From: Eubacteriales bacterium
Lineage (GTDB): Bacteria > Bacillota > Clostridia > Oscillospirales > CAG-272
DNA: 64,000 nt
Direction of reading: 5' to 3'
NCBI GenBank assembly: GCA_045643725.1
Contig: JAZRFQ010000044.1
Coordinates: 5,136-69,135, forward strand
A program made the translations under genes and the position numbers. Under the pieces are notes generated by a model. It did no database searches. It had not been told where the DNA came from and saw only the letters and a list, made by a program, of their open reading frames with translations. Numbering within the stretch: the stretch's first letter is position 1; every line of letters starts with the position of its first letter. Shown here piece after piece: positions 7,408 to 25,548 of the stretch.

Positions 7408-7423
7408 ATAATTGATCTTTGAG

Positions 7424-7466
7424 GTAAAAGCCGATTGGTAAAACAGTCGGCTTTTACTGGATTTTT
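7424..7466 (+). terminator. rho-independent terminator
   Basis: gtaaaagccga..tcggcttttac stem followed by a T-rich run. Confidence 0.65.
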
Positions 7467-7496
7467 GAGCGATTGCTCCGATAAAGGAAGTTTTGT

Positions 7497-8726
7497 ATGA
7501 GAATTATTCACAAGAAGGCCTTGTCACTCATGCTCGCCCTGCTTTTTGTTCTGACGTCGGTCGGATGCTTTGGCACGGGGCGAGACATAGTGCAGGACGG
7601 CATAGAGATAGCCGAGGATCCGCCGTACAGAAGAGAAGTGACCGAGCGCGCGGAGAGCGTGCTTCTGTCGCTTATGCGATACGGATATCTTTCGATCTCC
7701 TCGCTTGATAAGATCAGCGCGACGGTAGATGCTCGCATCGTCGCTTATACTGAGCGTATAAGCGCTATCATCTGCGAGAATCCCATCTCGGAGGCGAGGT
7801 ATATAGAGGTCATCGATGCGCTCGAGCAGAATGGCAGAGCGGTGGTCGACGAGCTGGTTTCTTTCCTTGACTCCGGCGAGCCGAGTCTCGAGTCCACCCG
7901 CGCTCTATATCTCGTCCTGTCAGGCGCATTCGGTGCGGATCGCGCGGCCTCCATGCTGTACGACGCCTGCCTTCTCGTTTATGATATGAAATATGAGGTC
8001 GCAATAGAGCGATTTAACACCTACGGCTACGCCTGGTATGAGCAGGAGGCCGCAGATATTCTCGCCGAGAAGCAACAGTTCGGCGATAGCATCGGCTGCG
8101 AGGATTTTTCTGCCTTGCTCCACTTCACCACGGTGCTTGCAGAGGTTGCTTTTTACGGCATAGATGAGAGTGCGGACGTCTTCTTTGACTCCGAGATACT
8201 GCTTCTTTTGCAGAGCCTCGACGTTGACGATATCGACGTTGACGAGAGCGGCTACGCACTCCTTATGTCCTATATGGCACCGAAGAACGCGCCAAAGGAG
8301 GATGCCTCTCTTTATGAGAAGATTAGATACGAGTTCTACCGTAGCGGTGACAGCGATCGTGTAGCCGCCGTGCTGGACGACGCCGTGACTCTTATGAGCC
8401 GTATGCTTCGCGGCCTGACGTCCGACGACGTCCGCGCAATACGCGAGAGGGACTATGACACTCTCGCCTCGTCGGTATTCTCGCGCTTTACAGAGGCGGA
8501 CTGGGAGCTCTTCGCGAGAGTCACCGACCTCGAGCTTTCAAACGATATATATTCTCATTTAAGCGAAACGAAATACGGAGATAAATATACCTCGTATCTT
8601 GCGTCGCTTCGCTCGGTAGAGCTTGACGAGCTTCGCTCGGCGGTTGGAACCGACGGATTTTACGAATATCTGCGGGACTACCTTGTCGGTATATGCCCGT
8701 CAGTCGCGTATGAGGTGAGCAAATGA
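7497..8726 (+). CDS. Hypothetical lipoprotein, first gene of an ABC exporter operon
   Basis: 409 aa. Signal peptide ending in the lipobox LTSVGC, RBS aaaggaag, and a stop that overlaps the next start (ATGA). Confidence 0.7.
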   Translation: MRIIHKKALSLMLALLFVLTSVGCFGTGRDIVQDGIEIAEDPPYRREVTERAESVLLSLMRYGYLSISSLDKISATVDARIVAYTERISAIICENPISEARYIEVIDALEQNGRAVVDELVSFLDSGEPSLESTRALYLVLSGAFGADRAASMLYDACLLVYDMKYEVAIERFNTYGYAWYEQEAADILAEKQQFGDSIGCEDFSALLHFTTVLAEVAFYGIDESADVFFDSEILLLLQSLDVDDIDVDESGYALLMSYMAPKNAPKEDASLYEKIRYEFYRSGDSDRVAAVLDDAVTLMSRMLRGLTSDDVRAIRERDYDTLASSVFSRFTEADWELFARVTDLELSNDIYSHLSETKYGDKYTSYLASLRSVELDELRSAVGTDGFYEYLRDYLVGICPSVAYEVSK

Positions 8727-9373
8727 TACAAGTAAAAAATATAACCAAAGGCTACAACGGCGAAGAGGTGCTTCACGGCGTTTCGCTCTCTATCGAGGAT
8801 GGCGAGTTCGTCTCAATCATGGGCGAGAGCGGTAGCGGAAAGAGCACGCTTCTGTCGATCATCGGCGGATTCCTTCTAGCCGATTCGGGAGAGGTTCTCC
8901 TTAACGGCGAGAGCGTCTCCTCGATGAATGATAAGGATCTTGCGAGGCTCAGATGCACAAGGCTCGGCTTCGTGTTCCAGGGATATAAGCTTATCCCCAC
9001 GCTGTCGGTAAGGGACAATATTATGCTTCCCGCGCTTCTCGGCGGAGGTGTTGAGTCCGAGCTCGATCCCTATCTTAACGAGATCACCGAGCAGCTTAAT
9101 ATCTCTGATATTCTGAAAAAATTTCCCGACGAGCTCTCCGGCGGACAGTGCCAGAGAGTTGCGATAGCACGCGCTCTGCTCTATAAGCCTGAGCTCATCG
9201 TGCTTGACGAGCCGACGGCCGCCCTCGATAGCGAGATGGAGGCGAAGGTCATGTCGTTCCTTGTGAAAATCAACCGAGAGCTTGGCACGACGATCCTGCA
9301 GGTTACGCACAGTAAGACTGTCTCGGAATATGGCAAGCGCGTGATATATTTGAAAGACGGTAGGGTATTATGA
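8723..9373 (+). CDS. ABC transporter ATP-binding protein (MacB/LolD/FtsE type)
   Basis: Walker A GESGSGKST, signature LSGGQCQR, Walker B LIVLDEPT; 216 aa; translationally coupled on both sides. Confidence 0.9.
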   Translation: MIQVKNITKGYNGEEVLHGVSLSIEDGEFVSIMGESGSGKSTLLSIIGGFLLADSGEVLLNGESVSSMNDKDLARLRCTRLGFVFQGYKLIPTLSVRDNIMLPALLGGGVESELDPYLNEITEQLNISDILKKFPDELSGGQCQRVAIARALLYKPELIVLDEPTAALDSEMEAKVMSFLVKINRELGTTILQVTHSKTVSEYGKRVIYLKDGRVL

Positions 9374-11682
9374 GGCTTCTTTTAAAGCATCTGATGCAAA
9401 GCATCAGAAAAAAACCTACACAGCCGCTGATCATTACGCTGGCCCTCGCTCTTTCCGTTGCTATGACGGTATTCGCCCTCGCGATTTACGGCTCGCTTAC
9501 GGCGGATGCCGAGATGGCGCAGGCCGCTAAATACGGTAGCGCCGATCTCACAGTAGAGCTCGGCAGCTCGTCCGATTCGCGCTTCCTCTTCGCCTCCGAC
9601 GTGAGAGATTCGCTCGGAGATCGGGCAAACGCCGTCGGAATCTATCCATTGCCCCTGATACTTGAAGGTACGACAGACACCGTAAGCGGCGTGGCGACCG
9701 AGCTTGATTCTGTTGGCGATCTGTTTTCCATAGCCTTCTACGAGTACGGACGCGTGACCGATTCCACTTTGAGTGAGATCGCCTTTGTCAGCGCCGATTT
9801 TGCAGAGCAGAGAGACATCTCGCTCGGAGACGTCATTTTAGTCGAGACCATGGGTCACAGGATGAGCTATCGCGTAGAGGGCATCAGCGATCGTCCGTTT
9901 ATGGCGAGCTACGACGTTATGGTAGATGTCGGTAGCGTTATGCGCGCATTTGCCGACGAGTCCTTGCTCTTTGCGGCGATGGGCGATAAATTTAAGCCCT
10001 GCAGTACGGTATACGTCGATCTTCTTGATAGTGAAGCGGTTGTCGGCGAGACCTTGGAAAGCCTGGCGGCAGATCATAAATTTGACGGAATGCGTCTTAT
10101 CGACGTGCAGGATACCGCAAACGCGAAGGAATACACCGCGTATCTCGAGGTATCCATCGGCGTTGCCGTGGCTCTTACTATGTTGCTCGCCGGCATCGTG
10201 ACCTTCTGTTGCTTCTTTATGCTTGCAAACCAGAGACATGAGGAGAACTTCTCGCTTTCCTGCTGCGGCGCGAGCCCGCGCATCCTCGGAATTATGCAAT
10301 ATGCCGAGGTCGCGATCTATTTCTTGGTCGCCGCTCCTCTCGGAGTGCTGATTTCTCTGCCAACGGTGCAGGCTATATCCTCCGTTGTCGGACTTTCTTA
10401 CGCAAAGACGCGCGTGTCCTTTGGCATCGCCGCGACCGCGTCTCTTCTTGTGCTTGCCGTCTGTATACTGACGGTATCACTTTTCCTCGCTTTTGCAAAG
10501 CGCGCATCGCGCACGGGCGAGAGAAAGCGCCGCGCGGGACTCGTTATACCTTTGATTCTTGTCGGAGCTATGGCGGTGACGCTTGGCATCTCATTCGCAG
10601 TTCCTGCGGAATCCGCGTTTAGCGTATATTGCGTACAGCTTGCCCTTCTTGCCGTTTTCCTCTTTTTTGCGACCTCTCCGCTTTTACAGAGATTTGCGCT
10701 GATTATTGATCGTATTATGCGCGGCGCGCGTAGCGAAAGGGCTATTTCCTTCAGATACGCCGTAAAGAATACCGCGTCGCTCAAGATTCTTCACAACATA
10801 TCCATGCTGTGCTCTCTTGCGACTGTGACTCTGATTACGGTTGGATTTATACTTTCCTGCATCATGGCGAATCTCTCGGTGCAGCCCGAGGTTATCAGGG
10901 CCGATTTTACGGTTTACAACACCACCGACCGATGCTACGAGAAGATCGAGAGCTGTGACGAGGTGGACGTGGCCTCCAGGTTCTATTTTGCCTTGACCGA
11001 CGGATTTATAGTTTTCTCATCGGAGAACGCATCCGTCTACTCGCCGATTCTCGATATATCCGAGCCGCCCGAAGCGAACGAGGTCGTCTTGAGCAAAGGC
11101 CTCGCGGAGAAATTTGCTCTTCACGAGGGCGAAGACTTCGATATAGAGCTTGATGGCGTGAAGCATTCCTTCCGCGTATCCGATATCACCGAGGCCCCCA
11201 TCGGAGTCGCCGTGATCAACTGCGAGGATATGGGTATTCCTTGCAATTCCATTCTGGTCAGAGGGCGCGAGGGAATCGCACGCGCCGATCTGCTTGCGGC
11301 GCTTTCCGAGGCTACCGTGGCAGAGATCGCGCCGATTCGATCGACTGAGAGCCTGCTCGACGGTCTTGAGAGCACGATGAGCACCTATATTCGTGCCGTC
11401 ATGATCCTGCTTTCCGTACTCTGTGTCTTCTTCGTAATCGGCACGCTTGATGCGCTTTACGAATGTATGCGCGCAAGAGGCGAGGACTACACGCTCTACC
11501 GCCTAGCAGGTGTTCCGAGGAGGAAGCTGGCTCTTATGCGCTCAACCGAGATCCTCCTTCCCATCGTGTTTGGAATCTTGCTTGGTCTTTTAGTGTCGGT
11601 CGTATCGGTAATATCTATCAATCGCGGTATGGTTCAGTTCGGTATGATTCCGTTTTTGGTTATGAAGGCTCTCGTGCTCTAA
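9370..11682 (+). CDS. FtsX-like ABC transporter permease (tandem FtsX modules, two large extracytoplasmic domains)
   Basis: 770 aa with multiple hydrophobic segments in two clusters separated by soluble stretches. ATGA overlap with the ATPase gene. Confidence 0.8.
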   Translation: MRLLLKHLMQSIRKKPTQPLIITLALALSVAMTVFALAIYGSLTADAEMAQAAKYGSADLTVELGSSSDSRFLFASDVRDSLGDRANAVGIYPLPLILEGTTDTVSGVATELDSVGDLFSIAFYEYGRVTDSTLSEIAFVSADFAEQRDISLGDVILVETMGHRMSYRVEGISDRPFMASYDVMVDVGSVMRAFADESLLFAAMGDKFKPCSTVYVDLLDSEAVVGETLESLAADHKFDGMRLIDVQDTANAKEYTAYLEVSIGVAVALTMLLAGIVTFCCFFMLANQRHEENFSLSCCGASPRILGIMQYAEVAIYFLVAAPLGVLISLPTVQAISSVVGLSYAKTRVSFGIAATASLLVLAVCILTVSLFLAFAKRASRTGERKRRAGLVIPLILVGAMAVTLGISFAVPAESAFSVYCVQLALLAVFLFFATSPLLQRFALIIDRIMRGARSERAISFRYAVKNTASLKILHNISMLCSLATVTLITVGFILSCIMANLSVQPEVIRADFTVYNTTDRCYEKIESCDEVDVASRFYFALTDGFIVFSSENASVYSPILDISEPPEANEVVLSKGLAEKFALHEGEDFDIELDGVKHSFRVSDITEAPIGVAVINCEDMGIPCNSILVRGREGIARADLLAALSEATVAEIAPIRSTESLLDGLESTMSTYIRAVMILLSVLCVFFVIGTLDALYECMRARGEDYTLYRLAGVPRRKLALMRSTEILLPIVFGILLGLLVSVVSVISINRGMVQFGMIPFLVMKALVL

Positions 11683-11782: not shown

Positions 11783-14278
11783 TTATTTCTTTTTCATAGG
11801 ATCGACAATGCCGAGACGCTCTGCCGCCTCCTCGCGCATCTTGTACTTGAGGATCTTGCCTGCCGCATTCATCGGGAATGCCTCGACAAACTCGATGTAC
11901 TTCGGCACCTTATGGCGCGCCATGCTCGCCTTGATGTAATCGGACATCTCGGCGACAGTCAGACTGCCCGACTCCTTGAGGATAATACAGGCCATTATTT
12001 CCTCGCCGTATTTCTCGTCGGGAACGCCGATTACCTGCACGTCCTTGACCGCGGGATGAGTGTATATGAACTCCTCGATCTCCTTGGGGTAGATGTTCTC
12101 GCCGCCGCGGATGATCATATCCTTGAGACGGCCGGTGATTTTGAAGTTGCCCTGCTCGTCGTAGGATGCGAGGTCGCCCGAGTGAAGCCAGCCGTCCTCG
12201 TCGATGGTATCCTTGGTCGCCATAGGCATCTTGTAGTAGCCCTTCATGGTGTTGTAGCCCTTGGCGCAGAACTCGCCGTTCACGCCGGGGCCGACCTCCT
12301 CGCCGGTCTCGGGATCGACGACCTTACAGCGAACGTGAGGGAATGCGTATCCAACCGTCTCGGTGCGGACGTCAAGAGGATCGGTCCAGGAGCTCATCGT
12401 GTTACCGGGAGCGCACTCGGTTTGACCGTATACGCTGACGATGCCGGTCATATTCATCTCATTCGGATCTGCGGCACGGCGCATCAGGTCTGCAGGACAG
12501 CCCGAGCCTGCCATAATTCCCGTTCTCATATGCGAAAAATCGGTGTTACGGTAGTTCGGATGGTTGAACATCGCGATGAACATGGTGGGAACGCCGTTGA
12601 AGCAGGTGATCTTCTCCTGATTGATGCAAGCAAGCGATGATTTTGCCGAGAAATAGGGCATCGGGCACATAGTAGCTCCGTGAGTCATAGACGAGGTCAT
12701 AGACAACGTCATACCGAAGCAATGGAACATAGGCACCTGGATCATCATACGGTCAGCGGTGGAGAGTCCCATACGGTCGCCGATACACTTGCCGTTGTTT
12801 ACTACGTTATAGTGAGTGAGCATTACGCCCTTAGGGAAGCCGGTTGTGCCCGAGGTGTACTGCATATTGCATACGTCGCCGGGGCGTACTGCCGCCGCCA
12901 TTCTTGCCACCTGCTCGGCGCTGACGAGCTTGTATCGCTCCATCGCCTCGTCAAAGGTAAGAGAGCCGGGCTGCTTGAAGCCGACGGTGATTACGTTTCT
13001 GAGGAAGGGCAGGCGCTTTGCGCGCAGAGGCTCGCCGGGGACGGTGTCCTTGATCTCGGGGCAGAGAGTGTTGATGATCTCCTGATAGTTTGAGTCGAGA
13101 CAGCTGTCGATCATAACGAGGGTGTGAGTGTCCGACTGACGCAGAAGATACTCTGCCTCGTGGATCTTGTAGGCGGTGTTTACGGTTACGAGCACCGCAC
13201 CGATTCTGGTCGTAGCCCAGAAGGTGATATACCACGCAGGAAGGTTGGTCGCCCAAACGGCTACCTTTGAGCCTGCCTTAACGCCGAGGGAGACGAGAGC
13301 TCGCGCGAATCTGTCAACCTCCTCGCGGAACTCGGCGTAGGTACGGGTATAGTCGAGAGTGGTATACTTGAAGCAGAGCTGATCGGGGAACTCGTCGGCA
13401 ACTCTGTCGAGCACCTCGGGGAAGGTGAGATTGATAAGCTCGTCCTTCTTCCAGACGTACTGACCTGTGCCGTCGTGGTTGAAATAGAGCTTTTTCTTCA
13501 TATCTCTCGTAGAGCTGAAGCGCGACATATAATTGGCAAAGTAGGGGAAGATGATCTCGGGATCCTGCAGATCCTCGAGCCAGTCGGGCTTCCACTCAAG
13601 CGAGATGAAGCCGTCGTAATTTACCGATGAGAGCGCACGCATAACGTCGTCGATAGGCATCGTGCCCTCTCCGATGAGCTGATACTTGCCGCTGTCGTCG
13701 GAGTCGCGCATATGAACGTGCTTGACGTAGCAGCCGAGATTCTTTATGGTCTGGTCGCCCGACTCACCGTTATCGCGGTATGGGTGATGAATATCCCAGA
13801 GAACGGCGAGATTATCGCTGGCAAAGCGGTCGAGCATATCGCGGAGTCTGCCGGTGTTGGAGTAGATTCCGCTCGTTTTTACGAGGATGCTGACCCCGAT
13901 GCGCTCGGCGTAAGGAACAAGCTCAAGAAGAGCCGAGTAAACGCCGTACTCGTCGCCCTCGATCGCGCAAACAACAACGTAGGGAACGCGAGCGTTATAG
14001 GCGATGTCCATCAGCGACTTGACCTCATCGATCACCGATCCCTTGACCGATATGTCGAGCGAAGAGTCGAAGCAGGGGATAGAGATCTGCATATCGCGCA
14101 GACGGCGTACGGTCGCTGCCGTGTTGTATTTATGGAAGGGACCGCCGCGGTCAATGAGGGTGTCAAACTTCGGGAGATTGTAGACCTCAACGCCACCGAA
14201 TCCCATGTCGGTTGCTACCTCGAGCATCTCATCAAAGGAGAAGCCGGGCCAACCGCGAGTGGAAAAGGAAAGCTTCAT
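11783..14278 (-). CDS. Fusion protein: xylose-isomerase-like TIM-barrel domain (N) + AMP-forming acyl-CoA ligase (C)
   Basis: 831 aa. The first about 270 aa resemble sugar-phosphate isomerase/epimerase (AP endonuclease 2 fold). The rest carries ANL motifs YTSGTTGFPKGVMLTH, GRLKDMIIRGGENIYPKEIE and NAAGKILK. Confidence 0.8.
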   Translation of the reverse strand: MKLSFSTRGWPGFSFDEMLEVATDMGFGGVEVYNLPKFDTLIDRGGPFHKYNTAATVRRLRDMQISIPCFDSSLDISVKGSVIDEVKSLMDIAYNARVPYVVVCAIEGDEYGVYSALLELVPYAERIGVSILVKTSGIYSNTGRLRDMLDRFASDNLAVLWDIHHPYRDNGESGDQTIKNLGCYVKHVHMRDSDDSGKYQLIGEGTMPIDDVMRALSSVNYDGFISLEWKPDWLEDLQDPEIIFPYFANYMSRFSSTRDMKKKLYFNHDGTGQYVWKKDELINLTFPEVLDRVADEFPDQLCFKYTTLDYTRTYAEFREEVDRFARALVSLGVKAGSKVAVWATNLPAWYITFWATTRIGAVLVTVNTAYKIHEAEYLLRQSDTHTLVMIDSCLDSNYQEIINTLCPEIKDTVPGEPLRAKRLPFLRNVITVGFKQPGSLTFDEAMERYKLVSAEQVARMAAAVRPGDVCNMQYTSGTTGFPKGVMLTHYNVVNNGKCIGDRMGLSTADRMMIQVPMFHCFGMTLSMTSSMTHGATMCPMPYFSAKSSLACINQEKITCFNGVPTMFIAMFNHPNYRNTDFSHMRTGIMAGSGCPADLMRRAADPNEMNMTGIVSVYGQTECAPGNTMSSWTDPLDVRTETVGYAFPHVRCKVVDPETGEEVGPGVNGEFCAKGYNTMKGYYKMPMATKDTIDEDGWLHSGDLASYDEQGNFKITGRLKDMIIRGGENIYPKEIEEFIYTHPAVKDVQVIGVPDEKYGEEIMACIILKESGSLTVAEMSDYIKASMARHKVPKYIEFVEAFPMNAAGKILKYKMREEAAERLGIVDPMKKK

Positions 14279-15681
14279 TATACCTCCTCCTCGTAGATGA
14301 TCTTATTGAGCGCACTGAGGTATGCCTGAATACCCGCGCCGACAATGTCGGTGGAGATTCCTATGCCCGAATATACCTTTGCACCCGAGCGGAGCTTGAC
14401 GATGGTCTGACCCATAGCCTCGCGGCCCTCTGTAACTGCCTGAAGCTGGAAGTCGTCGAGCTCATAGTGACGGCCGACGATCTTCTCTATAGTCTGGAAT
14501 GCGGCATCGATAGAGCCGTCACCCATATATACGCCCTCAAGAGACTGACCGTCCTTGACGAGCTTGATATGTGCGGTTGCCGCGATGGTGTTGCCCGAGG
14601 TAATAAGGTAGGAGTCGAGCTTGTACGCCGAGGGAACCTGCATAGCAGAGGAGGCAACGATAGCCTCGAGCTCCTTGAGACCAACCTTCTCCTTTTTCGT
14701 CGCGATCTCGCGGAAGGCGTTATATACCTGAACGCTATCCTCCTCGGAGAGCTCGTAGCCGAGCTTGGTTACGGCGAGAGTGATGGTGCTCATATCGTCG
14801 TCTGCTGTGAGGAATACCTCGTCTGCATCGGGAGATGCCGTGCCTTTGGCGGATTTTTTGCTGTTGCCCTTGCACATGCGCTCGATCTGCTCAGTGATTC
14901 TCGTCAGCTCGGTGGTGCGTACCTTGCAGGTAGCGTCGAGAGAGTCGGATCTTGCGGCAATAATGCGAGCGATGTCTGCAAGAGAAACGGTATCAATGGG
15001 ATATATAGCCGCGCATATCTGGGTCGCACCTGCGGTTATAGCCGAAACGGCGCAGGCCTCTGCCATAGAGAGCGCGTCGGAGCAGCGCACACCGAGGGTG
15101 ACGTTCTTCAGCTCGGGGAGCTTCTCATACTGCAGAGCGATAAAGCTCTCAAGCTCGGAGGGAAGCATACCGCCCGCTGTATCGCAGAGCGTTACGGTGG
15201 TAGCACCTGCCTCGATAGCCGTCTTGATAGCAAGGGCAAGGAAGTCCTGCTCGCTGCGAGTCGCATCGTTTGCGATGAACTCAACGTCGGAGCACAGAGC
15301 CGCGCATCTTGCGACGGAATCGCGGATATCGTTTATCATAGCATCGGGCTTCTTATGGAAGATATATTCTATTTGCACGGCACTCGTGGGCGCGCATACC
15401 TGAAGACGAGGCTTCTTCGCGAGCTTGAGCGCGGCCCAGGTATCGTTGATGCTTTCCACATTCATCGATACGGGAACGGCAATGCAGCTGTCGCTTACTG
15501 CGGCCCCGATAGATTTAATTCTGAGCGAATCAATACGGAGGTTCTCAATGCCCTCCAGCTCGATAACGTCTGCACCGAGTCTGTCCAGCAACTTTGAAAA
15601 CTCGATCTTTTCCTTGAAGGATAGGCAAAAGCTCTCGGAAAACTGTTTCATAGTTGCGTCGCTGATTTTGATCTGCTTCAT
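14278..15681 (-). CDS. 2-isopropylmalate synthase-like protein with degenerate catalytic motifs and an intact LeuA C-terminal regulatory domain
   Basis: 467 aa, collinear with LeuA. It has ISDATMKQFSE in place of DTTLRDGEQ and RCSDALSMA in place of HxHDDLGMA. The C-terminal ..GDGSIDAAFQTIEKIV..GIGISTDIVGAGIQAYLSALNKI is LeuA_dimer-like. Confidence 0.75.
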   Translation of the reverse strand: MKQIKISDATMKQFSESFCLSFKEKIEFSKLLDRLGADVIELEGIENLRIDSLRIKSIGAAVSDSCIAVPVSMNVESINDTWAALKLAKKPRLQVCAPTSAVQIEYIFHKKPDAMINDIRDSVARCAALCSDVEFIANDATRSEQDFLALAIKTAIEAGATTVTLCDTAGGMLPSELESFIALQYEKLPELKNVTLGVRCSDALSMAEACAVSAITAGATQICAAIYPIDTVSLADIARIIAARSDSLDATCKVRTTELTRITEQIERMCKGNSKKSAKGTASPDADEVFLTADDDMSTITLAVTKLGYELSEEDSVQVYNAFREIATKKEKVGLKELEAIVASSAMQVPSAYKLDSYLITSGNTIAATAHIKLVKDGQSLEGVYMGDGSIDAAFQTIEKIVGRHYELDDFQLQAVTEGREAMGQTIVKLRSGAKVYSGIGISTDIVGAGIQAYLSALNKIIYEEEV

Positions 15682-15701: not shown

Positions 15702-15984
15702 AAATAAAAAAGCCCCTGTGCCGACTAATCGGTCAAGGGACGAAAAAATTCGCGGTACCACCCTAATTATCTCTACGGGAGAGATCACTTTCCAGCCTCA
15801 AATAAGGCCACACCCTGTAACGGAGGCATCCGTGTCCGATTACTCGCATATCGCTTTGACAGGACCGACTCGGGAAGGAGAATACCAAAACCGTTCGTAT
15901 CGGCTCGCACCAAGCGCCGACTCTCTGTGACGTCTGAAATTGGCATATTTTCCGTCATTGTCTTTTTAAAATGGCGATTAAATT
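15702..15984 (-). promoter_or_regulatory. T-box riboswitch leader (tRNA-sensing attenuator) for the 15681<-11783 operon
   Basis: Read on the minus strand: GA motif tgacggaa, AGAGAG bulge, distal-loop GGTGCGA, F-box CCGTTA, and T-box aattagggtggtaccgcgaa (15749-15768). A terminator hairpin cccttgaccga..tcggcacagggg plus T-run lies at 15705-15740. Confidence 0.85.
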
Positions 15985-16150: not shown

Positions 16151-16407
16151 ATAAAAACTGTGACGAAGACGGTACGGTGAGAGAGTTTTCAGAGAGTCGG
16201 CGCTTGGTGCGAGCCGATAGCTTGTAGCCGAAATACCCATCACTTCCGAGTTGAAGATCTGAACGGCTGCGTTAGGGTCTTACGTTTCCCGCGTTAAGGG
16301 TAAGAGCTTGTTAGAGCTTGAAGTGGCGTTTATCGCAAATTGAGTGGTACCGCGGGTATAATTACTCGTCTCAAGAAGTTGTTTCTTGAGGCGTTTTTTG
16401 TTTTTTA
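16151..16407 (+). promoter_or_regulatory. T-box riboswitch leader for the 16447-> operon
   Basis: GA motif tgacgaag, AGAGAG bulge, distal-loop GGTGCGA, F-box-like GCGTTA, and T-box aaattgagtggtaccgcggg (16337-16356). A terminator cgtctcaagaa-gttg-tttcttgaggcg plus T-run lies at 16368-16407. Confidence 0.85.
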
Positions 16408-16446: not shown

Positions 16447-18714
16447 ATGACCAACCAGTATAACGTCAGTCAGCTTCAGAGGATCGCGCTTCGAATTCGC
16501 GAGATGCGCGAGATTTTCGGTTACAGCACCTCGAAGATGGCGGAGATGATAGATATCACCGAGGAGGTATATCTTTCTTACGAGTCGGGTGCGGTCGACC
16601 TACCCTTCACATTTATGCATAAGTGCGCCCAGGCCTTCGGCGTGGAGATCACCGATATTCTCGAGGGTCACAGCGCAAAGCTCTCGGGATATACCGTTAC
16701 CCGTAGAGGCGAGGGTCTCACTACCGCGAGCGAGGATGGCATTACCATTCAGGATATGGCACCTCTTTTCAGACATAAGCTGGCAACACCCTATTGGGTA
16801 ACCTATAAGTACTCCGAGGAGCTTCAGAGCCGTCCGATCAGCACGGTTACTCACGCAGGTCAGGAGTTCGATATGGTCGTCAAGGGTGCGATGCGCATCC
16901 GCATTGGCGATCACGAGGAGACTCTGCGCGAGGGCGACAGTATCTTCTTCAAGTCCTCCACACCTCACGGTATGATAGCCGTCGGCGGCGAGGACTGCGT
17001 GTTCCTTGCTATGGTCATGGCGAGCGATAGCACCGATCAGCCCATGTACGTTGGCGAGCCTACCAATACAAAGCAGACACAGCCTCTTCTTTGCGAGAAG
17101 TTCGTGAAGCCTGTAGAGAACGAGAACGGCGAGCTTCTTGACGTTCGCTTCTCCAATGAGGACAGATATAACTTCGCGTTCGATACCGTCGACGAGATAG
17201 CGCGTAAGTATCCCGACAAGCTCGCGATGCTCCACGTTGCAAACGATATGACCGAGCGCAGATTTACCTTTAAGGATATGAAGGAAGCCTCCTCGCAGAG
17301 CGCTAACTACTTCAAGTCCCTCGGCATCAAGCGCGGCGACAGAGTTATGCTCGTTCTCAAGAGACATTATCAGTTCTGGTTCGCAATACTCGGCCTTCAT
17401 AAGCTCGGCGCGATCGCAATTCCCGCGACCAATCAGCTCGTTGAGCACGATTTCACCTATCGCTTCGAGGCGGCAGGCGTCAGCGCGATACTCTGTACCG
17501 CAGACGGCGATACCGCGCGTCAGGTCGAGCTCGCAGAGGAGAAGAACGGTCTTTCGCTCACCAAGGTCATAGTCGGCGGCGAGAGGGAAGGATGGCACCA
17601 TTATGACAGCGAGTACGGTCTCTTCAGCCGCAGATATCTGCGCGAGCCCGATGCTCCCTGCGGAAACGATCCCATGCTTATGCTCTTTACCTCGGGCACG
17701 ACAGGCTATCCCAAGATGGCTATGCATTCCTACAAGTACGCACTCGGTCATTACGTGACCGCGAAATATTGGCACCGTTGCGAGCAGGACGGACTTCACT
17801 TCACGATTTCCGAGACCGGATGGGGCAAGGCTCTGTGGGGCAAGCTCTACGGTCAGTGGCTCTGCGAGGGCGGAGTATTCACCTATGACTTCGACAGATT
17901 TGACTCGTCGAAGATACTTCCCATGTTCGCAAAGTACGGTATAACCACCTTCTGTGCACCCCCTACGATGTACAGAATGCTTATCAAGCAGGATCTGGGC
18001 AACTACGATCTCTCGTCTATACGCCACGCGACAACAGCGGGCGAGGCGCTCAACCCCGAGGTCTTCTATCAGTTCGAGAAGGCTACTGGCCTGCGCATTG
18101 CCGAGGGCTTCGGACAGACCGAGATGACTCTCGGTATCGCAAATCTCGTTGGCACGAAGCTCAAGCCCGGCGCAATGGGTAAGCCCGTTCCCGGCTACGG
18201 CATCGACCTCGTCGATCCCGACGGGAAGCCGGTTGCCGACGGTGTCAACGGCGAGATCGTTATTCGCACCAAGCCGAAGAAGCATCCCGGCGTCTTCCTT
18301 GGCTATTATCTGAACGAGGATGCGACAAAGAACGCTTGGCACGACGGTCTCTATCACACAGGCGACGTTGCGTGGCGTGATGAGGACGGCTATTATTGGT
18401 ACGTAGGTCGCGCAGACGACGTCATCAAGTCCTCGGGCTACAGAATCGGCCCGTTCGAGATAGAGTCCACCATTATGGAGCTTCCTTACGTGCTTGTGTG
18501 CGGTGTTTGCGCCGCGCCCGACGAGGTAAGAGGTCAGGTCGTCAAGGCTTGCATCGTTCTCGTTCCCGGAGTGGAGGCTACTGACGAGCTCAGACGCGAT
18601 ATTCAGAATTACGTCAAGCAGCATACCGCGCCCTACAAGTATCCGAGAATAGTTGAGTTCCGCACCGAGCTTCCCAAGACTATAAGCGGAAAGATCATGA
18701 GAAATAAGCTTTAA
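16447..18714 (+). CDS. Fusion protein: XRE-type HTH + cupin domain (N) + AMP-forming medium-chain-type acyl-CoA ligase (C)
   Basis: 755 aa. The first about 70 aa are HTH_3-like (..FGYSTSKMAEMIDITEEVYLSYESG..). Next comes a cupin (..HAGQEFDMVVKGAMRIRIGDHEETLREGDSIFFKSSTPHGM..). ANL motifs follow: FTSGTTGYPKMAMH, YHTGDVAWRDEDGYYWYVGRADDVIKSSGYRIGPFEIES and PKTISGKIMR. Confidence 0.85.
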   Translation: MTNQYNVSQLQRIALRIREMREIFGYSTSKMAEMIDITEEVYLSYESGAVDLPFTFMHKCAQAFGVEITDILEGHSAKLSGYTVTRRGEGLTTASEDGITIQDMAPLFRHKLATPYWVTYKYSEELQSRPISTVTHAGQEFDMVVKGAMRIRIGDHEETLREGDSIFFKSSTPHGMIAVGGEDCVFLAMVMASDSTDQPMYVGEPTNTKQTQPLLCEKFVKPVENENGELLDVRFSNEDRYNFAFDTVDEIARKYPDKLAMLHVANDMTERRFTFKDMKEASSQSANYFKSLGIKRGDRVMLVLKRHYQFWFAILGLHKLGAIAIPATNQLVEHDFTYRFEAAGVSAILCTADGDTARQVELAEEKNGLSLTKVIVGGEREGWHHYDSEYGLFSRRYLREPDAPCGNDPMLMLFTSGTTGYPKMAMHSYKYALGHYVTAKYWHRCEQDGLHFTISETGWGKALWGKLYGQWLCEGGVFTYDFDRFDSSKILPMFAKYGITTFCAPPTMYRMLIKQDLGNYDLSSIRHATTAGEALNPEVFYQFEKATGLRIAEGFGQTEMTLGIANLVGTKLKPGAMGKPVPGYGIDLVDPDGKPVADGVNGEIVIRTKPKKHPGVFLGYYLNEDATKNAWHDGLYHTGDVAWRDEDGYYWYVGRADDVIKSSGYRIGPFEIESTIMELPYVLVCGVCAAPDEVRGQVVKACIVLVPGVEATDELRRDIQNYVKQHTAPYKYPRIVEFRTELPKTISGKIMRNKL

Positions 18715-18769
18715 TGGGCAAAAAACACAAAATACCCCCTAACCGTGTTAAATATTTACTGAAAAAGTA

Positions 18770-18799
18770 TTGACAAGCACAGTTGTAATTGAGTATAAT
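18770..18799 (+). promoter_or_regulatory. Internal sigma-A promoter ahead of the second ligase paralog
   Basis: TTGACA, 18 nt, TATAAT in the 162-nt gap. Confidence 0.55.
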
Positions 18800-18876
18800 A
18801 TCTCTATTAATTAAAATTTTTAGGACAAAATCCGCGCACTCTCGACAGAGACCGCGGAGCATCCAATACATACGAG

Positions 18877-21156
18877 GTGGTTTCGGCGATGGACGGAATG
18901 AAGGACAAACTTAATCAAATAGCGGCGCGAATCAAGGAGCTCCGTATCGTTACGGGACTTACCGTCGAGGAGATGGCGGCCCGTACCGGCATTACCGTAG
19001 AGGAGTACGAGCAGTGTGAGGCAGGCAACCGCAATCTCAGCGTAGCCTTTCTTTATCATTGTACCCTCAGCTTCGGCGTCGATCTCGGAGATCTTCTCGA
19101 GGGTAAGAGCCCGAAGCTCCGTCAGTATGCTCTGACTCGTCGCGGCGGCGGTCAGCGCATCGAGGAAGCGCACAATATGATAGGCTTCAACCTCGCGGCA
19201 GAGTTCCGTAACCGTATTGCTCTTCCGCTTTATATGGAGCTTTCCTATAACGGTGACGAGGAGAATATCGAGCTCGTGACTCACGAGGGTCAGGAGTGCG
19301 ATATCGTCATCAAGGGACATATGAAGATACGCATCGGCGAGAAGACCGAGATCCTCGGCCCCGGCGACTGTATTTACTTCGACTCGGGTACACCCCACGG
19401 CATGATAGCCGTTGGCGGCGAGGATTGTAGCTTCTATGCCATCGTCCTCAGAAACCAGGCGGCAAGACTTGGCGAGCAGGGCGCAGTTCCCTCGGTCGCT
19501 ACCAAGAGATATGCCGACGATGCAGGCAGCCGTATTTATCAGGACTTCATCATTCCCACCGAGGAGGGCGGAATTCTCAAGAAGATCGCCTTCAAGAACG
19601 AGGACAAGTTCAACTTCGCCTTCGACGTAGTCGACGAGCTTGGAAAGCGCAAGCCGGATAAGCTTGCGATGCTCCACGTCAGCGAGGATGGCACCGAGCA
19701 CAGATTTACCTTCAGCGATATCAAGAAGGAGTCGGCAAGAGCCGCAAATTACTTCAAGTCTCTCGGCATCAAGCGCGGCGACAGAGTAATGCTCATTCTC
19801 ACACGCCACTATCAGTATTGGTTCTCGGTCATCGGCTTACATAAGCTCGGCGCGATAGCAATCCCTGCACCCAACCAGCTTCTTGAGAAGGATCTCAAGT
19901 ACAGATTCGAGGCAGGAAACGTCAAGGCTATTCTTTGCACCGCGGACGGCGAGGTCTCGAGCGAGGTAGAGCGCGCGGCAGAGCAGTGCCCGAATCTTGC
20001 TCACAAGATACTCGTGGGCGGCGCTCGCGAGGGTTGGCACAGCTTCGATGAAGAGTACAGCCTCTTCAGCAGTCACTATGCACGCACTGAGGATGCTCCC
20101 TGCGGCAACGATCCGATGCTGATGTTCTTCACGTCGGGCACGTCGGGATATCCCAAGATCGCGGCGCATAACTATAAATATCCTCTCGGTCACTTCATTA
20201 CCGCGAAGTATTGGCATCAGGTCAACTCCGAGGGACTTCACTTCACGATTTCGGATACCGGCTGGGCAAAGTCCATGTGGGGTAAGCTCTACGGCCAGTG
20301 GCTCTGCGAGGCGGCGATCTTCGTCTATGACTTCGACAGATTCACTCCCGAGAACATACTTCCTATGTTTGCAAAGTACGGCATCACCACGTTCTGTGCA
20401 CCTCCTACGATGTACAGAATGCTTATCAAGCAGGATCTCTCGAGATTCGACCTCTCGACTATAGAGCACGCGTCCACCGCGGGCGAGGCTCTCAATCCCG
20501 AGGTATTCCGTCAGTTCGAGAAGCACACCGGTCTTCAGATCATGGAGGGCTTCGGTCAGTCCGAGAGCACTCTTATCATCGGTAACCTCTCGGGCGACAG
20601 TCACAAGATGGGCTCTATGGGTAAGCCCGTGCCTCTCTACAAGGTTCGTCTGCTTGATGCCGACGGCGCAGAGGTTGCACGCGGTGAGACGGGTGAGATC
20701 TGTATCGACATCTCGGGGGGCCTACCCTGCGGTCTTGCGTATGCCTACGATGCGAACGAGGAGGTCACCGCACAGACCTGGCGCGACGGTTATTATCACA
20801 CCGGCGACGTTGCCTGGATGGACGAGGACGGCTTCCTTTGGTACGTTGGACGAGTTGACGACGTTATTAAGTCCTCGGGCTACAGAATCGGTCCCTTCGA
20901 GATCGAGAACGTTATTATGGAGCTTCCCTACGTTCTTGAGTGCGGTGTATCCGCCGCTCCCGACGAGGTCAGAGGTCAGGTCGTTAAGGCGAGCATAGTT
21001 CTCGTAAACGGCTTCAAGGGCACCGACGAGCTCAAGCGTGAGATCCAGAACTACGTCAAGTCGAGAACCGCACCCTATAAGTACCCGAGAATTATCGAGT
21101 TCCGCGACAGTCTTCCTAAGACCACAAGCGGCAAGATCATCAGAAAACAGCTGTAA
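18877..21156 (+). CDS. Second XRE-HTH + cupin + AMP-forming acyl-CoA ligase fusion (paralog of 16447..18714)
   Basis: 759 aa with the same three-module architecture and ANL motifs (FTSGTSGYPKIAAH, ..GRVDDVIKSSGYRIGPFEIEN.., PKTTSGKIIR). The start may be the ATG at 18889, 11 nt after GAGG, rather than the GTG at 18877. Confidence 0.85.
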   Translation: MVSAMDGMKDKLNQIAARIKELRIVTGLTVEEMAARTGITVEEYEQCEAGNRNLSVAFLYHCTLSFGVDLGDLLEGKSPKLRQYALTRRGGGQRIEEAHNMIGFNLAAEFRNRIALPLYMELSYNGDEENIELVTHEGQECDIVIKGHMKIRIGEKTEILGPGDCIYFDSGTPHGMIAVGGEDCSFYAIVLRNQAARLGEQGAVPSVATKRYADDAGSRIYQDFIIPTEEGGILKKIAFKNEDKFNFAFDVVDELGKRKPDKLAMLHVSEDGTEHRFTFSDIKKESARAANYFKSLGIKRGDRVMLILTRHYQYWFSVIGLHKLGAIAIPAPNQLLEKDLKYRFEAGNVKAILCTADGEVSSEVERAAEQCPNLAHKILVGGAREGWHSFDEEYSLFSSHYARTEDAPCGNDPMLMFFTSGTSGYPKIAAHNYKYPLGHFITAKYWHQVNSEGLHFTISDTGWAKSMWGKLYGQWLCEAAIFVYDFDRFTPENILPMFAKYGITTFCAPPTMYRMLIKQDLSRFDLSTIEHASTAGEALNPEVFRQFEKHTGLQIMEGFGQSESTLIIGNLSGDSHKMGSMGKPVPLYKVRLLDADGAEVARGETGEICIDISGGLPCGLAYAYDANEEVTAQTWRDGYYHTGDVAWMDEDGFLWYVGRVDDVIKSSGYRIGPFEIENVIMELPYVLECGVSAAPDEVRGQVVKASIVLVNGFKGTDELKREIQNYVKSRTAPYKYPRIIEFRDSLPKTTSGKIIRKQL

Positions 21157-21186: not shown

Positions 21187-21849
21187 ATGAAAACAGATTC
21201 TAAAAGACTAACGCTCTTCGCAGGTCATTACGGAAGCGGCAAGACGAATATTGCCGTCAACTACGCCTACAAGCTGGCAAGAGAGGGAAAGCGGGTCTGC
21301 ATTGCCGATCTCGACATTGTAAATCCCTACTTCAGAACCAAGGATAGCGAGGCAGAGCTTGAGGCTCTCGGCATTCGCCTTGTTTCGCCCCAATATGCCA
21401 ACACGAACGTGGATCTTCCGGCACTTCCCGCAGAGAGCTACAGATTAGTACAGGATAAATCAACCTACGGAATTATGGACATCGGCGGCGATGACAGAGG
21501 TGCTTACGCTCTCGGTCGCTTTGCCGATGCTATAAAGAGCGAGGACGATTACCGTATGGCATTCGTCGTTAACTGCTACCGTCCCATGACGGCAACGGTG
21601 GAGGATGCCGTAGAGATAATGAGAGAGATCGAGGCGGCCTGCGGCATTCGCTTTAACTGCATCGTCAACAACTCTAATCTCGGTGAGGAGACCACCTCGG
21701 CGACCGTTCGCGATTCGCTCGATTTCGTAGATCGCCTCAGCCAAGCTACCGGACTTGAGATCTGGATGCACACGGCAGAGGAGTCGGTGGCAGAGGAGCT
21801 TTCTGAGCTTTCCGTTATGCCTCTTTCGCTTCAAAAGAAGAAATTTTAA
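21187..21849 (+). CDS. P-loop NTPase (SIMIBI-class, MinD/GPN-like), function unknown
   Basis: 220 aa. Walker A GHYGSGKTN, then ..CIADLDIVNPYF.. and ..MDIGGDD... It sits between the ligase and oxidoreductase genes. Confidence 0.65.
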   Translation: MKTDSKRLTLFAGHYGSGKTNIAVNYAYKLAREGKRVCIADLDIVNPYFRTKDSEAELEALGIRLVSPQYANTNVDLPALPAESYRLVQDKSTYGIMDIGGDDRGAYALGRFADAIKSEDDYRMAFVVNCYRPMTATVEDAVEIMREIEAACGIRFNCIVNNSNLGEETTSATVRDSLDFVDRLSQATGLEIWMHTAEESVAEELSELSVMPLSLQKKKF

Positions 21850-21896: not shown

Positions 21897-22103
21897 ATGG
21901 CAAAGGTAACGTTTAATACCGATATGTGCAAGGGCTGTGGACTTTGCGTTGACGCGTGTCCGAAGAGCTGCCTTGCAATCGCAGATGACAGACTTAATCA
22001 GAAGGGATACTCTCCCGCTTATATGAAGGAGAGCGAGAAGTGTATCGGCTGTGCCTTCTGTGCTACTATGTGTCCCGATTGTATAATCACCGTAGAGAAA
22101 TAA
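21897..22103 (+). CDS. 2-oxoacid:ferredoxin oxidoreductase delta subunit (2x[4Fe-4S] ferredoxin)
   Basis: 68 aa with CKGCGLCVDACP and CIGCAFCATMCP. Confidence 0.9.
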   Translation: MAKVTFNTDMCKGCGLCVDACPKSCLAIADDRLNQKGYSPAYMKESEKCIGCAFCATMCPDCIITVEK

Positions 22104-22113
22104 GGAGGTTGCT

Positions 22114-23175
22114 ATGGCTGACAGAATTTTAATGAAGGGTAACGAGGCTATCGCAGAGGCCGCGATCCGTGCGGGCTGCCGTCACTACTTCGGTTATCCT
22201 ATCACTCCCCAGACAGAGATCGCCGCTTATATGGCAAAGAAGATGCCCAAGATCGGCGGAGTATTCCTTCAGGCAGAGAGCGAGATCGCATCTATAAATA
22301 TGGTTTACGGCGCAGCTGCGGCAGGTATGCGCGTTATGACCTCATCCTCGAGCCCCGGAATTTCGCTTAAGACCGAGGGACTCAGCTACATAGCAGGCTC
22401 CGACGTTCCTGCACTCGTTGTTAACGTACAGCGCGGCGGCCCCGGACTCGGCGGCATTCAGCCCTCCCAGTCTGATTACTTCCAGGCGACGAAGGGCGGC
22501 GGTCACGGTGACTACCGTATGATCGTTCTTGCGCCCGCATCGGTTCAGGAGATGGCGAGCCTTACTATCAAGGGCTTTGATCTCGCTGACAAGTATAATA
22601 TGACCTCTATGATCCTCGCAGACGGTACCATCGGTCAGATGATGGAGCCCATCACCTTCGAGGACGCCGAGATCAAGACCTATGAGAAGCCCTGGGCTCT
22701 CACAGGTACCGAGAAGAAGCGTGCTCACAACATAGTTAACTCTCTTTACCTCAAGCCCGATGAGCTTGAGAAAAAGAACTTTGAGCGCTTTGAGAAGTAC
22801 GCCGAGATCGAGAAGACCGAGGCAATGTGGGAGAACTATATGACCGAGGACGCAGAGATCTGCGTTGTAGCCTTCGGTATTGCCGCACGCGTTGCCAAGA
22901 ACGCCGTTGCCGCGGCAAGAGCAGAGGGCATCAAGGTCGGTCTTATCCGCCCCATCACCCTTTGGCCCTTCCCCAACGCCGCATTCGATGCGGTAAAGAA
23001 TGCAAAGGCATTCATCTCGGTAGAGCTCAGTATGGGACAGATGATCGAGGACGTGAAGCTTGCTAGCAAGTGTCAGAAGCCCGTCTCTCTTTGCAACCGC
23101 TCGGGCGGTATGATCCCCTCGCCCGATGAGGTTCTCGAGGCTATAAGAAATGCAGCGAAAGGAGTGAATGAATAA
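22114..23175 (+). CDS. vorB: 2-oxoacid:ferredoxin oxidoreductase alpha subunit (VorB/KorA-type)
   Basis: 353 aa. N-terminus ..[30 protein letters not shown].. is typical of this subunit. The branched-chain (VOR) assignment rests on the four-subunit layout and the adjacent ilvE. Confidence 0.8.
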
Positions 23176-23927
23176 TGGCAACCGTATTTGAAAAACCTAA
23201 ATCCTTAACAGACACTCCGTTCCATTACTGTCCCGGATGTCCCCACGGTATAATCCACCGCCTCGTTGCAGAGGTTATGGATGAGCTTGATATCGAGGGT
23301 AAGGCAATCGGCGTTGCACCCGTAGGATGCGCCGTTATGGCGTACGATTACTTCGCTTGCGATATGATCGAGGCTCCTCACGGCAGAGCACCCGCTGTTG
23401 CTACCGGCATCAAGCGCTGCCGCCCCGATAACGTCGTATTCACCTATCAGGGTGACGGCGACCTTGCGTCTATCGGTATGGCAGAGACGGTTCATTCAGC
23501 GGCAAGAAACGAGAACATCACGGTTATCTTCGTAAACAACGCGATCTACGGTATGACCGGCGGTCAGATGGCTCCTACCAGCCTTCCCGGTCAGGTTACC
23601 CAGACCTCTCCCTACGGCCGTGACGACAAGCACTGCGGTTGGTCCATTAAGGGCAGCGAGATGCTCGCAACCCTCGAGGGCCCCGAGTACATCGCACGCG
23701 TAGCGGTAAACAACGTAAAGAACGTCAAGAACGCCAAGAAGGCTATCAAGAAGGCCTTTGAGAATCAGATAGCAGGAAAGGGCTTCTCTCTCGTAGAGGT
23801 CGTTTCCGCCTGCCCCACCAACTGGGGCATGACTCCCAAGGCGGCACTCGAGTGGATAGAGAGCGATATGCTTCCTTACTATCCCATCGGAGTATACAAG
23901 GACAGAAGCGCAGGGGAGGAGAAGTAA
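23175..23927 (+). CDS. 2-oxoacid:ferredoxin oxidoreductase beta subunit (TPP-binding)
   Basis: 250 aa with ..YCPGCPHG.. and the TPP motif ..[19 protein letters not shown]; ATGA-type overlap with the alpha subunit. Confidence 0.85.
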
Positions 23928-23928
23928 T

Positions 23929-24468
23929 ATGAAGACAACACAGATCCTCATCGCCGGCTTCGGCGGACAGGGAATACTCTTCTCGGGTAAGTTCCTCGCT
24001 TACAAGGGACTGACCGAGGAGCTTCAGGTATCCTGGCTTCCCTCGTACGGCCCCGAGATGCGTGGCGGTACTGCAAACTGTAACGTAATTCTCTCGGACG
24101 ATCCCGTTGGCTCGCCCATTATCACCGCACCCGACGTTCTTATCGCTATGAACCTGCCCTCGCTTCAGAAGTACGTTAATTCTGTTGTAGCAGGCGGTCA
24201 GATATACGTTGACTCCTCTCTTATCGACGTCAAGGTCGAGAGAGACGACGTTCAGGTGTTCTACATTCCCGCAACTCAGATGGCGAAGGATGCAGGCATC
24301 GCTACTCTCGCGAATATGATCATCATCGGTCACCTTCTCGAGAATCATCCCGAGCTTTCCTTCGACGGCGTTGACGTGGTTGTTGATAGCCTTGTGCCTC
24401 CCAAGAAGGCGGCGCTCAAGGAGCTCAACATTAAGGCACTCACTCTCGGTAAGAACTACAACAAATAA
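23929..24468 (+). CDS. 2-oxoacid:ferredoxin oxidoreductase gamma subunit
   Basis: 179 aa; ..[29 protein letters not shown].. is typical of the gamma subunit. Confidence 0.85.
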
Positions 24469-24522
24469 AAAATGCGCCCACCTGACGTCAAGCGGTGCGG
24501 CACTTATAAAACGGAGACAATT

Positions 24523-25548
24523 ATGGAAAAGAAAAATATCGACTGGGCTTCTCTCGGCTTCGGCTATATGGAGACCGACTACAGCTACGTTTCCTACTAC
24601 AAGGACGGCAAGTGGGATGACGGCGCTCTTACCGCCGAGCACACCGTAACTCTCAACGAGTGTGCTTGCGTGTTCCAGTACGCGCAGACCTGCTTCGAGG
24701 GACTCAAGGCATACACCACCGAGGACGGCAGAATCGTTACCTTCCGCCCCGACCTCAATGCACAGCGTATGGCTGACTCTGCAGAAAGACTCAGAATGCC
24801 CGTATTCCCCGTGGAGAGATTCATCGAGGCGGTTAAGATGGTCGTAAAGGCTAACGCCGCATACGTCCCCCCCTTCGGCTCGGGCGCAACTCTCTATATC
24901 AGGCCCTATATGATGGGAACCAACGCGGTTATCGGCGTTAAGCCTGCAACCGAGTATATGTTCCGTATTCTCGTAACTCCCGTAGGCCCTTACTTCAAGG
25001 GCGGCGTTAAGCCTCTTACCGTAAGACTTTCCGACCTTGACCGCGCCGCTCCTCACGGAACAGGTCACATCAAGGCAGGTCTTAACTACGCGATGAGCCT
25101 TTACAACATCGTTGAGGCTCACGAGCTCGGCTACGACGAGAACATCTACCTTGATGCCGCAACTCACACCAACATCGAGGAGACCGGCGGCGCTAACGTC
25201 CTCTTCGTTACCAAGGACGGCGGAGTTGCAACTCCCAAGTCTGATACCATTCTCCCCTCCATTACACGTCGTTCTCTTATGGTAGTTGCCAGCGATTACC
25301 TCGGACTCAAGGCAGAGGAGAGAGTTATCTCCAAGGACGAGCTTGACAGCTTTGCCGAGTGTGGCCTTTGCGGTACTGCGGCCGTTATCTCTCCCGTTGG
25401 TAAGATCGTTGACCACGGTCGCGAGATCTGCTTCCCCGCAGGTATGACCGAGATGGGCCCTGTTACCAAGAAGCTTTACGAGACGCTTACCGGTATCCAG
25501 ATGGGACGCATCGAGGCTCCCGAGGGATGGATCGTTGAGATCAAGTAA
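24523..25548 (+). CDS. ilvE: Branched-chain-amino-acid aminotransferase (class IV)
   Basis: I chose the start at MEKKNIDW (GGAG 6 nt upstream) rather than the ORF-track 24472. ..FEGLKAY..DGRIVTFRPD.N..R...S..RL.MP.. and the length match IlvE. Confidence 0.85.
   Translation: MEKKNIDWASLGFGYMETDYSYVSYYKDGKWDDGALTAEHTVTLNECACVFQYAQTCFEGLKAYTTEDGRIVTFRPDLNAQRMADSAERLRMPVFPVERFIEAVKMVVKANAAYVPPFGSGATLYIRPYMMGTNAVIGVKPATEYMFRILVTPVGPYFKGGVKPLTVRLSDLDRAAPHGTGHIKAGLNYAMSLYNIVEAHELGYDENIYLDAATHTNIEETGGANVLFVTKDGGVATPKSDTILPSITRRSLMVVASDYLGLKAEERVISKDELDSFAECGLCGTAAVISPVGKIVDHGREICFPAGMTEMGPVTKKLYETLTGIQMGRIEAPEGWIVEIK

Follow-up and report, generated by a model that had tools for sequence, protein, structure and literature searches.

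Organization of the locus and architecture of the LeuA-like protein

The window analyzed here is a stretch of 64,000 nucleotides from contig JAZRFQ010000044.1 of a Eubacteriales bacterium. Its minus strand carries an intact open reading frame (P0001, 14278..15681) for a 467-residue protein that is related to 2-isopropylmalate synthase (LeuA) by its Pfam and NCBIfam matches and predicted structure, and which we term pseudo-LeuA. It is the first gene behind a T-box leader (15733..15967, minus strand; Rfam RF00230, 117 bits against a gathering score of 93), whose specifier, CUC at 15878-15880, is a leucine codon. Downstream of the leader, a hairpin and a U-run extend to about 15700; this terminator hairpin alone folds no better than shuffled sequences (z -0.96). 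At its other end, the pseudo-LeuA stop codon shares one base with the start codon (TAATG at 14278) of a gene for an 831-residue fusion of a TIM barrel (AP_endonuc_2) with an AMP-forming acyl-CoA ligase (11783..14278, minus strand; Pfam, NCBIfam and alignment). A preliminary description of this DNA had placed the gene directly behind a T-box and against the ligase start, and both placements hold; the identity of the specifier and the deletions reported below go beyond it.

The first 270 residues of pseudo-LeuA form a DRE-TIM barrel (14872..15681, minus strand) that has kept the fold and lost the active site. Residues 7-16 read SDATMKQFSE in place of the DTTLRDGEQ signature of LeuA, with Lys12-Gln13 (15643..15648, minus strand) replacing the catalytic Arg and Asp. 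Residues 199-207 read RCSDALSMA in place of HCHxDLGMA, with Arg199-Cys-Ser201 (15079..15087, minus strand) replacing the metal-binding His-x-His. Both substitutions had been reported previously and recur at the same residues in our alignments, in which 3RMJ, 3EWB and 6E1J serve as partners. The protein also lacks the GERAG loop and the whole of subdomain I (HESGIH, TYEI), and hence is about 35-50 residues shorter than type-I LeuA. In the Mycobacterium tuberculosis LeuA, the GERAG loop and the His and Tyr of subdomain I are part of the acetyl-CoA groove and of the signal path (PMC2704214). The residues of that enzyme are R80/D81 at the Arg-Asp site, H285/H287 at His-x-His, and H379 and Y410 for the His and Tyr of subdomain I. 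An AlphaFold model (predicted local distance difference test, pLDDT, 85) shows a full barrel, a disordered linker (273-288) that stands in place of subdomain I and joins the barrel to subdomain II, the three helices of the latter (residues 291-347; 14641..14811, minus strand; also aligned) and the regulatory fold. Foldseek superposes the predicted barrel on those of 3EEG, 3EWB and 3RMJ with a root-mean-square deviation of 1.7-1.8 Å, which argues against moved metal ligands. A shift of this kind had been raised earlier as a challenge to the pseudoenzyme interpretation, and neither the structure nor the alignment places the ligands elsewhere.

The C-terminal LeuA-type regulatory domain (residues 348-467; 14281..14640, minus strand; Pfam and alignment) is intact, in keeping with the first account and with the motifs quoted there, and carries GDG(S/P)IDA at 387-393 and STDI at 443-446. 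The GxG pocket is present, and position 390 is Ser in the window's protein where Pro is the usual residue. Two glycines of the M. tuberculosis enzyme, G531 and G533, have been tied to feedback inhibition (PMC2704214), and pseudo-LeuA keeps the equivalents of both. The two domains anticipated in the preliminary description are matched in Pfam: LeuA_dimer at 336-461 (E 3.5e-29) and HMGL-like at 19-226 (E 1.1e-26). A PDB sequence search with the regulatory domain alone gave no match. The top NCBIfam models are all 2-isopropylmalate synthases, reached at about half their curated cut-offs (251.8 versus 598.7 bits for TIGR00973; 280.9 versus 532 bits for PRK00915). The citramalate synthase (CimA) model TIGR00977 yields 55 bits against a cut-off of 450, and the regulatory domain is 36-48% identical to type-I LeuA versus 19-24% to CimA, with pocket motifs of the LeuA type; by model and by regulatory domain alike, pseudo-LeuA falls outside CimA.

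A conserved family linked to an acyl-CoA ligase

Relatives of pseudo-LeuA are numerous: at least 120 protein clusters share at least 70% identity with it, 586 candidate stretches in species genomes encode a relative, and a profile search recovers more than 100 near-full-length representatives at 50% clustering. Where a host is named, it belongs to Oscillospiraceae, Lachnospiraceae or another group of gut Clostridia. In a set of 127 diverse members, no protein has more than one of the three metal ligands (Asp/His/His), as expected of the pseudoenzyme proposed at the outset. Across the same members, position 12 (the Arg site) is R, K, C, A, Q or S, position 13 (the Asp site) is variable or gapped, the Glu of GxGERxG is gapped in 126 and the subdomain I His and Tyr in all 127. 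Among the 80 nearest relatives of the window's protein, Lys12 and Gln13 are nearly invariant. The wide alignment also contains family-specific invariant barrel residues (Phe22, Pro98, Lys111) and widely conserved Asp8, Glu134, Asp139, Arg142 and Asp167. The top-residue frequency is nevertheless higher in the regulatory domain than in the barrel (0.69 versus 0.46), and the median ratio of nonsynonymous to synonymous substitution rates (dN/dS), taken over 710 non-independent pairs, is 0.12 for the regulatory domain, 0.25 for the barrel and 0.22 overall. Pseudo-LeuA is thus a conserved family under purifying selection and not a pseudogene. In a quick tree, 64 members form one clade (Shimodaira-Hasegawa-like approximate likelihood ratio test, SH-aLRT, 100) among type-I LeuA proteins and apart from CimA and yeast-type LeuA; the family descends from LeuA, but by the defining residues it does not belong to the LeuA enzyme family.

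We considered four LeuA variants of about 500 residues with odd motifs as intermediates and rejected them: none falls within the clade, three lie in ilv/leu contexts without a ligase, and the neighbor of the fourth was not identified. Variants of about this length outside the clade, with partly lost catalytic motifs, are seen at L179:5001-6536, L180:2005-3516 and L184:5001-6494; two of these adjoin leuC-like or ilvN-like genes, and they are possibly independent degenerations.

The leucine specificity of the leader extends across the family. Ten aligned T-boxes of distant relatives have CUC or CUG throughout, and the specifier upstream of pseudo-LeuA changes synonymously between CUC, CUG and CUU. 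A pattern scan covered 131 pseudo-LeuA loci, of which about 20 are duplicates. A T-box motif was recognized in 94 of them and a specifier could be assigned in 73, of which 72 were leucine; the single other call is the window's own T-box, misread as GCT by the pattern and read as CUC in the Rfam alignment.

The association with the ligase is persistent. Of 80 close loci, 78 have the ligase gene immediately 3' of pseudo-LeuA and two stop at a contig edge; the 21 distant loci examined all show the same order. An overlap of 1 or 4 bases is present at 74 of the 78 junctions. Fusion ligases also occur without pseudo-LeuA in about 60 sampled genomes, about 49 of them with leuB; of ten such partner-free ligases tested, four lie behind a T-box that passes the threshold, in each case with CUC. 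The Glu, Asp, His, Glu metal motif of the ligase barrel is kept in 20 of 20 aligned partner-free ligases, whose barrels have a mean identity of 64%. In 21 diverse partnered ligases the barrel identity is 43% and the motif is eroding, with Lys134 in place of the first metal Glu in the window. The ligase cores are equally conserved (79% partner-free versus 77% partnered), and the barrel evolves 3.7 times as fast as the core in the presence of pseudo-LeuA versus 2.2 times in its absence, both ratios being taken on a fixed tree. The partnered ligases form one clade, except for two with an intact barrel motif from a lineage that mostly keeps ordinary leuA and leuB. Apart from adjacency, this decay of the ligase barrel is the strongest indication that the two proteins are functionally coupled. 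Together with the invariant adjacency and the translational coupling, it supports a functional link between pseudo-LeuA and the ligase, such as the preliminary description had suspected. A complex prediction limited to pseudo-LeuA and the N-terminal 275 residues of the ligase gave a score of 0.25 and a mark of 0.32, and speaks neither for nor against a complex.

Several variations on this arrangement were observed. Partner-free fusions with an intact barrel motif lie under their own Leu T-box at L129-L148. Stand-alone proteins of about 270 residues that match the ligase barrel and mostly keep its metal motif occur at L169-L174, with no T-box or ligase adjoining. At L163:7319-11271 and L164:7553-11517, a deep-branching pseudo-LeuA with a ligase of intact barrel motif is found in genomes that also have ordinary leuA, leuB and ilvC; this lineage may possibly represent an early stage of the partnership. 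We also considered a conserved C-terminal YEE motif of pseudo-LeuA as a docking tail and dropped it. Its Tyr-Glu-Glu codons (14283-14294, minus strand, in the window; likewise at L001-L080) form GAGGAGG, the ribosome-binding site of the downstream ligase, and hence their conservation may operate at the RNA level.

A candidate leucine-sensing partner in isovalerate salvage

The genes divergent from pseudo-LeuA provide the likely metabolic setting. A second T-box leader (16151..16376, plus strand; Rfam) with an isoleucine specifier, AUC at 16239-16241, precedes a gene for a fusion of an XRE-cupin region with an acyl-CoA synthetase (16447..18714, plus strand), a putative 2-methylbutyrate ligase. 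A second such fusion (18877..21156, plus strand), whose orthologs have Val T-boxes, is a putative isobutyrate ligase. Both were identified with Pfam and NCBIfam, and their best model is MbcS, below cut-off. The relatives' T-boxes likewise carry an Ile specifier at the first synthetase and a Val specifier at the second; in the window, the 162-base gap before the second (18715-18876) has no T-box above the Rfam threshold, where the orthologs of many relatives have a Val T-box. Further along the plus strand are a P-loop NTPase gene (21187..21849; Pfam and synteny), the four subunits, ferredoxin-like delta, alpha, beta and gamma, of a branched-chain 2-oxoacid:ferredoxin oxidoreductase (Vor; 21897..24468; NF005507 above cut-off) and the branched-chain aminotransferase IlvE (24472..25548; TIGR01123 above cut-off). 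The small NTPase precedes vor in almost every locus and is possibly a Vor maturation factor.

Carboxylation of isovalerate to leucine has been known from labeling in the rumen since the 1960s. The labeling work in rumen anaerobes by Allison and colleagues is cited in PMC7356843, where the rumen routes run from isovalerate to leucine, from 2-methylbutyrate to isoleucine and from isobutyrate to valine. The window encodes the acid activation, ferredoxin-dependent carboxylation and transamination expected for all three branched acids. MbcS of Staphylococcus aureus uses 2-methylbutyrate and isobutyrate and acts poorly on isovalerate (PMC10026030). By elimination, and given its Leu T-box, the partner of pseudo-LeuA, which belongs to a PRK12583-like subfamily different from its MbcS-like neighbors, is likely an isovalerate-CoA ligase.

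A survey of 299 genomes of the class, each at least 95% complete, with tables read by hand, found the family in 48 (about 16%; in one case the gene spans two contigs). Because of the relatedness of these genomes, the counts are descriptive and cannot be treated as independent tests. Vor alpha is present in 48 of 48 carriers against 163 of 251 other genomes, leuB in 5 of 48 against 165 of 251, and ilvC in 6 of 48 against 144 of 251. A second LeuA was found in only 6 carriers and none in the other 42. In the window's own genome, which is 66% complete, no leuB was found, an IlvD-like match is partial and lies at a contig end, and the other HMGL-like genes resemble Re-citrate synthase and an oxaloacetate decarboxylase subunit.

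From the computed loss of catalytic residues, fold, selection, synteny, T-box specificity and co-occurrence, we infer leucine binding, a complex, the ligase substrate and an inhibitory sign, and consider it moderately probable that pseudo-LeuA is a dead descendant of type-I LeuA serving as the leucine-sensing regulatory subunit of the adjoining ligase. Uncharged tRNA-Leu would open the T-box, and pseudo-LeuA and the ligase would be made together. The ligase would convert isovalerate to isovaleryl-CoA, Vor would reductively carboxylate this to 2-oxoisocaproate, and IlvE would transaminate the latter to leucine. When sufficient, leucine would bind the retained regulatory domain, and the leucine-bound pseudo-LeuA would shut down the ligase step, which commits ATP and CoA. 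The T-box would provide slow control over expression and the dead enzyme fast control over activity, the part played by LeuA in the classical pathway, such that the salvage route would be under the same two-level control as classical leucine synthesis. The preliminary description had suggested a leucine or 2-oxoacid sensor or a scaffold for the ligase. Of these, leucine sensing fits best, because conservation peaks in the regulatory domain, which is of the LeuA and not of the CimA type; 2-oxoacid sensing in the barrel fares poorly, since the pocket residues vary freely across the wide family. On a broader scale, we tentatively suggest, at somewhat less than even confidence, a widespread two-protein system in which a dead LeuA gives leucine feedback in trans to an unrelated ligase, replacing the function of the ligase's own TIM-barrel site, the classical feedback module having been transplanted onto isovalerate salvage as the classical pathway was lost.

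Several points weigh against a leucine-sensing regulator. The evidence is entirely comparative, and the survey behind part of it draws on related genomes. Subdomain I carries the inhibitory signal of LeuA (Tyr410; PMC2704214), and its deletion means that a different output path must be assumed. Purifying selection also acts on the barrel and would be unnecessary for sensing alone; the barrel is plausibly a dimerization or docking surface. The ligases that occur alone indicate that pseudo-LeuA is dispensable for the ligase family as a whole. The decay of the ligase barrel is essentially one evolutionary event, and a weak search for longer forms found no natural fusion of pseudo-LeuA with the ligase.

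The selected barrel and its invariant Phe22, Pro98 and Lys111, as well as the loss of the metal motif in the partnered ligase clade, would also suit a protein that binds leucine or a related compound and acts as a positive or structural partner, stabilizing or activating a ligase with a decayed barrel of its own, or as a regulator of Vor or IlvE. We regard this as unlikely: adjacency and translational coupling are confined to the ligase, several loci have vor and ilvE at another position or not in the vicinity, and a pure scaffold would leave the leucine pocket unexplained as the best-conserved part. We rate as rather improbable a role in which isovalerate, 2-oxoisocaproate or an acyl-CoA is taken up by the regulatory domain, or by the emptied barrel, and passed on, in the manner of channeling or substrate selection rather than feedback. 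These compounds do have the side chain of leucine, and the M. tuberculosis LeuA was crystallized with 2-oxoisocaproate (3HPS); however, across the wide family the residues lining the 2-oxoacid site are either free to vary or missing, and the regulatory pocket is unchanged from LeuA.

A similarly low likelihood attaches to a new metal-independent enzyme, for instance one in which Lys12 or a conserved Asp or Glu acts on the acyl-CoA made by the ligase. The near-invariance of Lys12 and Gln13 made Lys12-based chemistry attractive among close relatives, and the five widely conserved charged residues from Asp8 to Asp167 might be read likewise; it was dropped after the wide alignment, in which position 12 is occupied by six different residues and position 13 by anything, and the conserved acidic residues are the same as in ordinary LeuA and look structural. 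It is very improbable that pseudo-LeuA still makes isopropylmalate or citramalate by means of shifted ligands, or that it is a decaying pseudogene. Some databases do label it 2-isopropylmalate synthase, and 42 of the 48 carriers have no other LeuA found. Yet the His pair, GER loop and subdomain I are missing, the model scores are far below cut-offs, and in the 43 carriers without leuB an isopropylmalate product could not be used, while the intact frames and overall dN/dS exclude a decaying pseudogene.

Comparison with known systems and neighboring genes

With type-I LeuA (TIGR00973, PRK00915; 3RMJ, 3EWB, 3EEG; M. tuberculosis 1SR9/3FIG for the full architecture), pseudo-LeuA shares the barrel fold, subdomain II, LeuA-type pocket motifs and Leu T-box control. 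It differs in lacking Arg/Asp, His-x-His, the GER loop and subdomain I; its genetic partner is an acyl-CoA ligase rather than leuBCD, and most of the genomes in which it occurs lack the isopropylmalate pathway. CimA shares superfamily and domain order but keeps all catalytic residues and has a divergent regulatory domain with different pocket motifs. A parallel in principle may be HisZ, a dead histidyl-tRNA synthetase paralog that regulates the short ATP phosphoribosyltransferase. Both would be dead paralogs with a retained amino-acid site, encoded beside the first enzyme of a pathway and exerting end-product control; pseudo-LeuA has likewise lost its catalytic residues under purifying selection and is co-encoded with its putative target. 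The fold, amino acid and target are unrelated, and for pseudo-LeuA complex formation and regulation are predictions. MbcS of S. aureus (PMC10026030) is the closest model for the Ile- and Val-controlled ligases; unlike them, it feeds fatty-acid synthesis and has no XRE-cupin part, and the partner of pseudo-LeuA belongs to another subfamily.

In literature searches of partial coverage, we found no paper that assigns this ligase or pseudo-LeuA to the isovalerate pathway and nothing relevant on a LeuA pseudoenzyme or T-box-controlled Vor loci, so a prior description is possible. If correct, our proposal would provide a further example of a pseudoenzyme in bacterial metabolism, in this case one whose regulatory target comes from a different superfamily. 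It points to genes, open to testing, for the activation of isovalerate on its way to leucine and for the control of this route, which would explain the need of many gut anaerobes for branched-chain acids. It also flags a probable misannotation, in that about 16% of the sampled near-complete genomes of the class carry a gene that is called leuA and whose product is probably unable to make isopropylmalate.

Other genes were noted around these loci. A gene for an amidohydrolase-like protein of about 270 residues (DxHxH) lies in or near the pseudo-LeuA/ligase operon at L149, L150, L151, L155, L158, L160, L162 and L168, and was not seen adjoining it in the window. At 4966-11682 of the window, genes for an 813-residue acidic exported protein, a 409-residue lipoprotein-like open reading frame and an ABC ATPase/permease pair are oriented toward the end of the ligase gene. 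Elsewhere in the genome, contig C49 (30.6-35.7 kb; L081, L084, L086) has a cluster of a Re-citrate-synthase-like gene, a GntR-like regulator, aconitase and isocitrate dehydrogenase, which contains the only aconitase and Iso_dh family matches of this genome.

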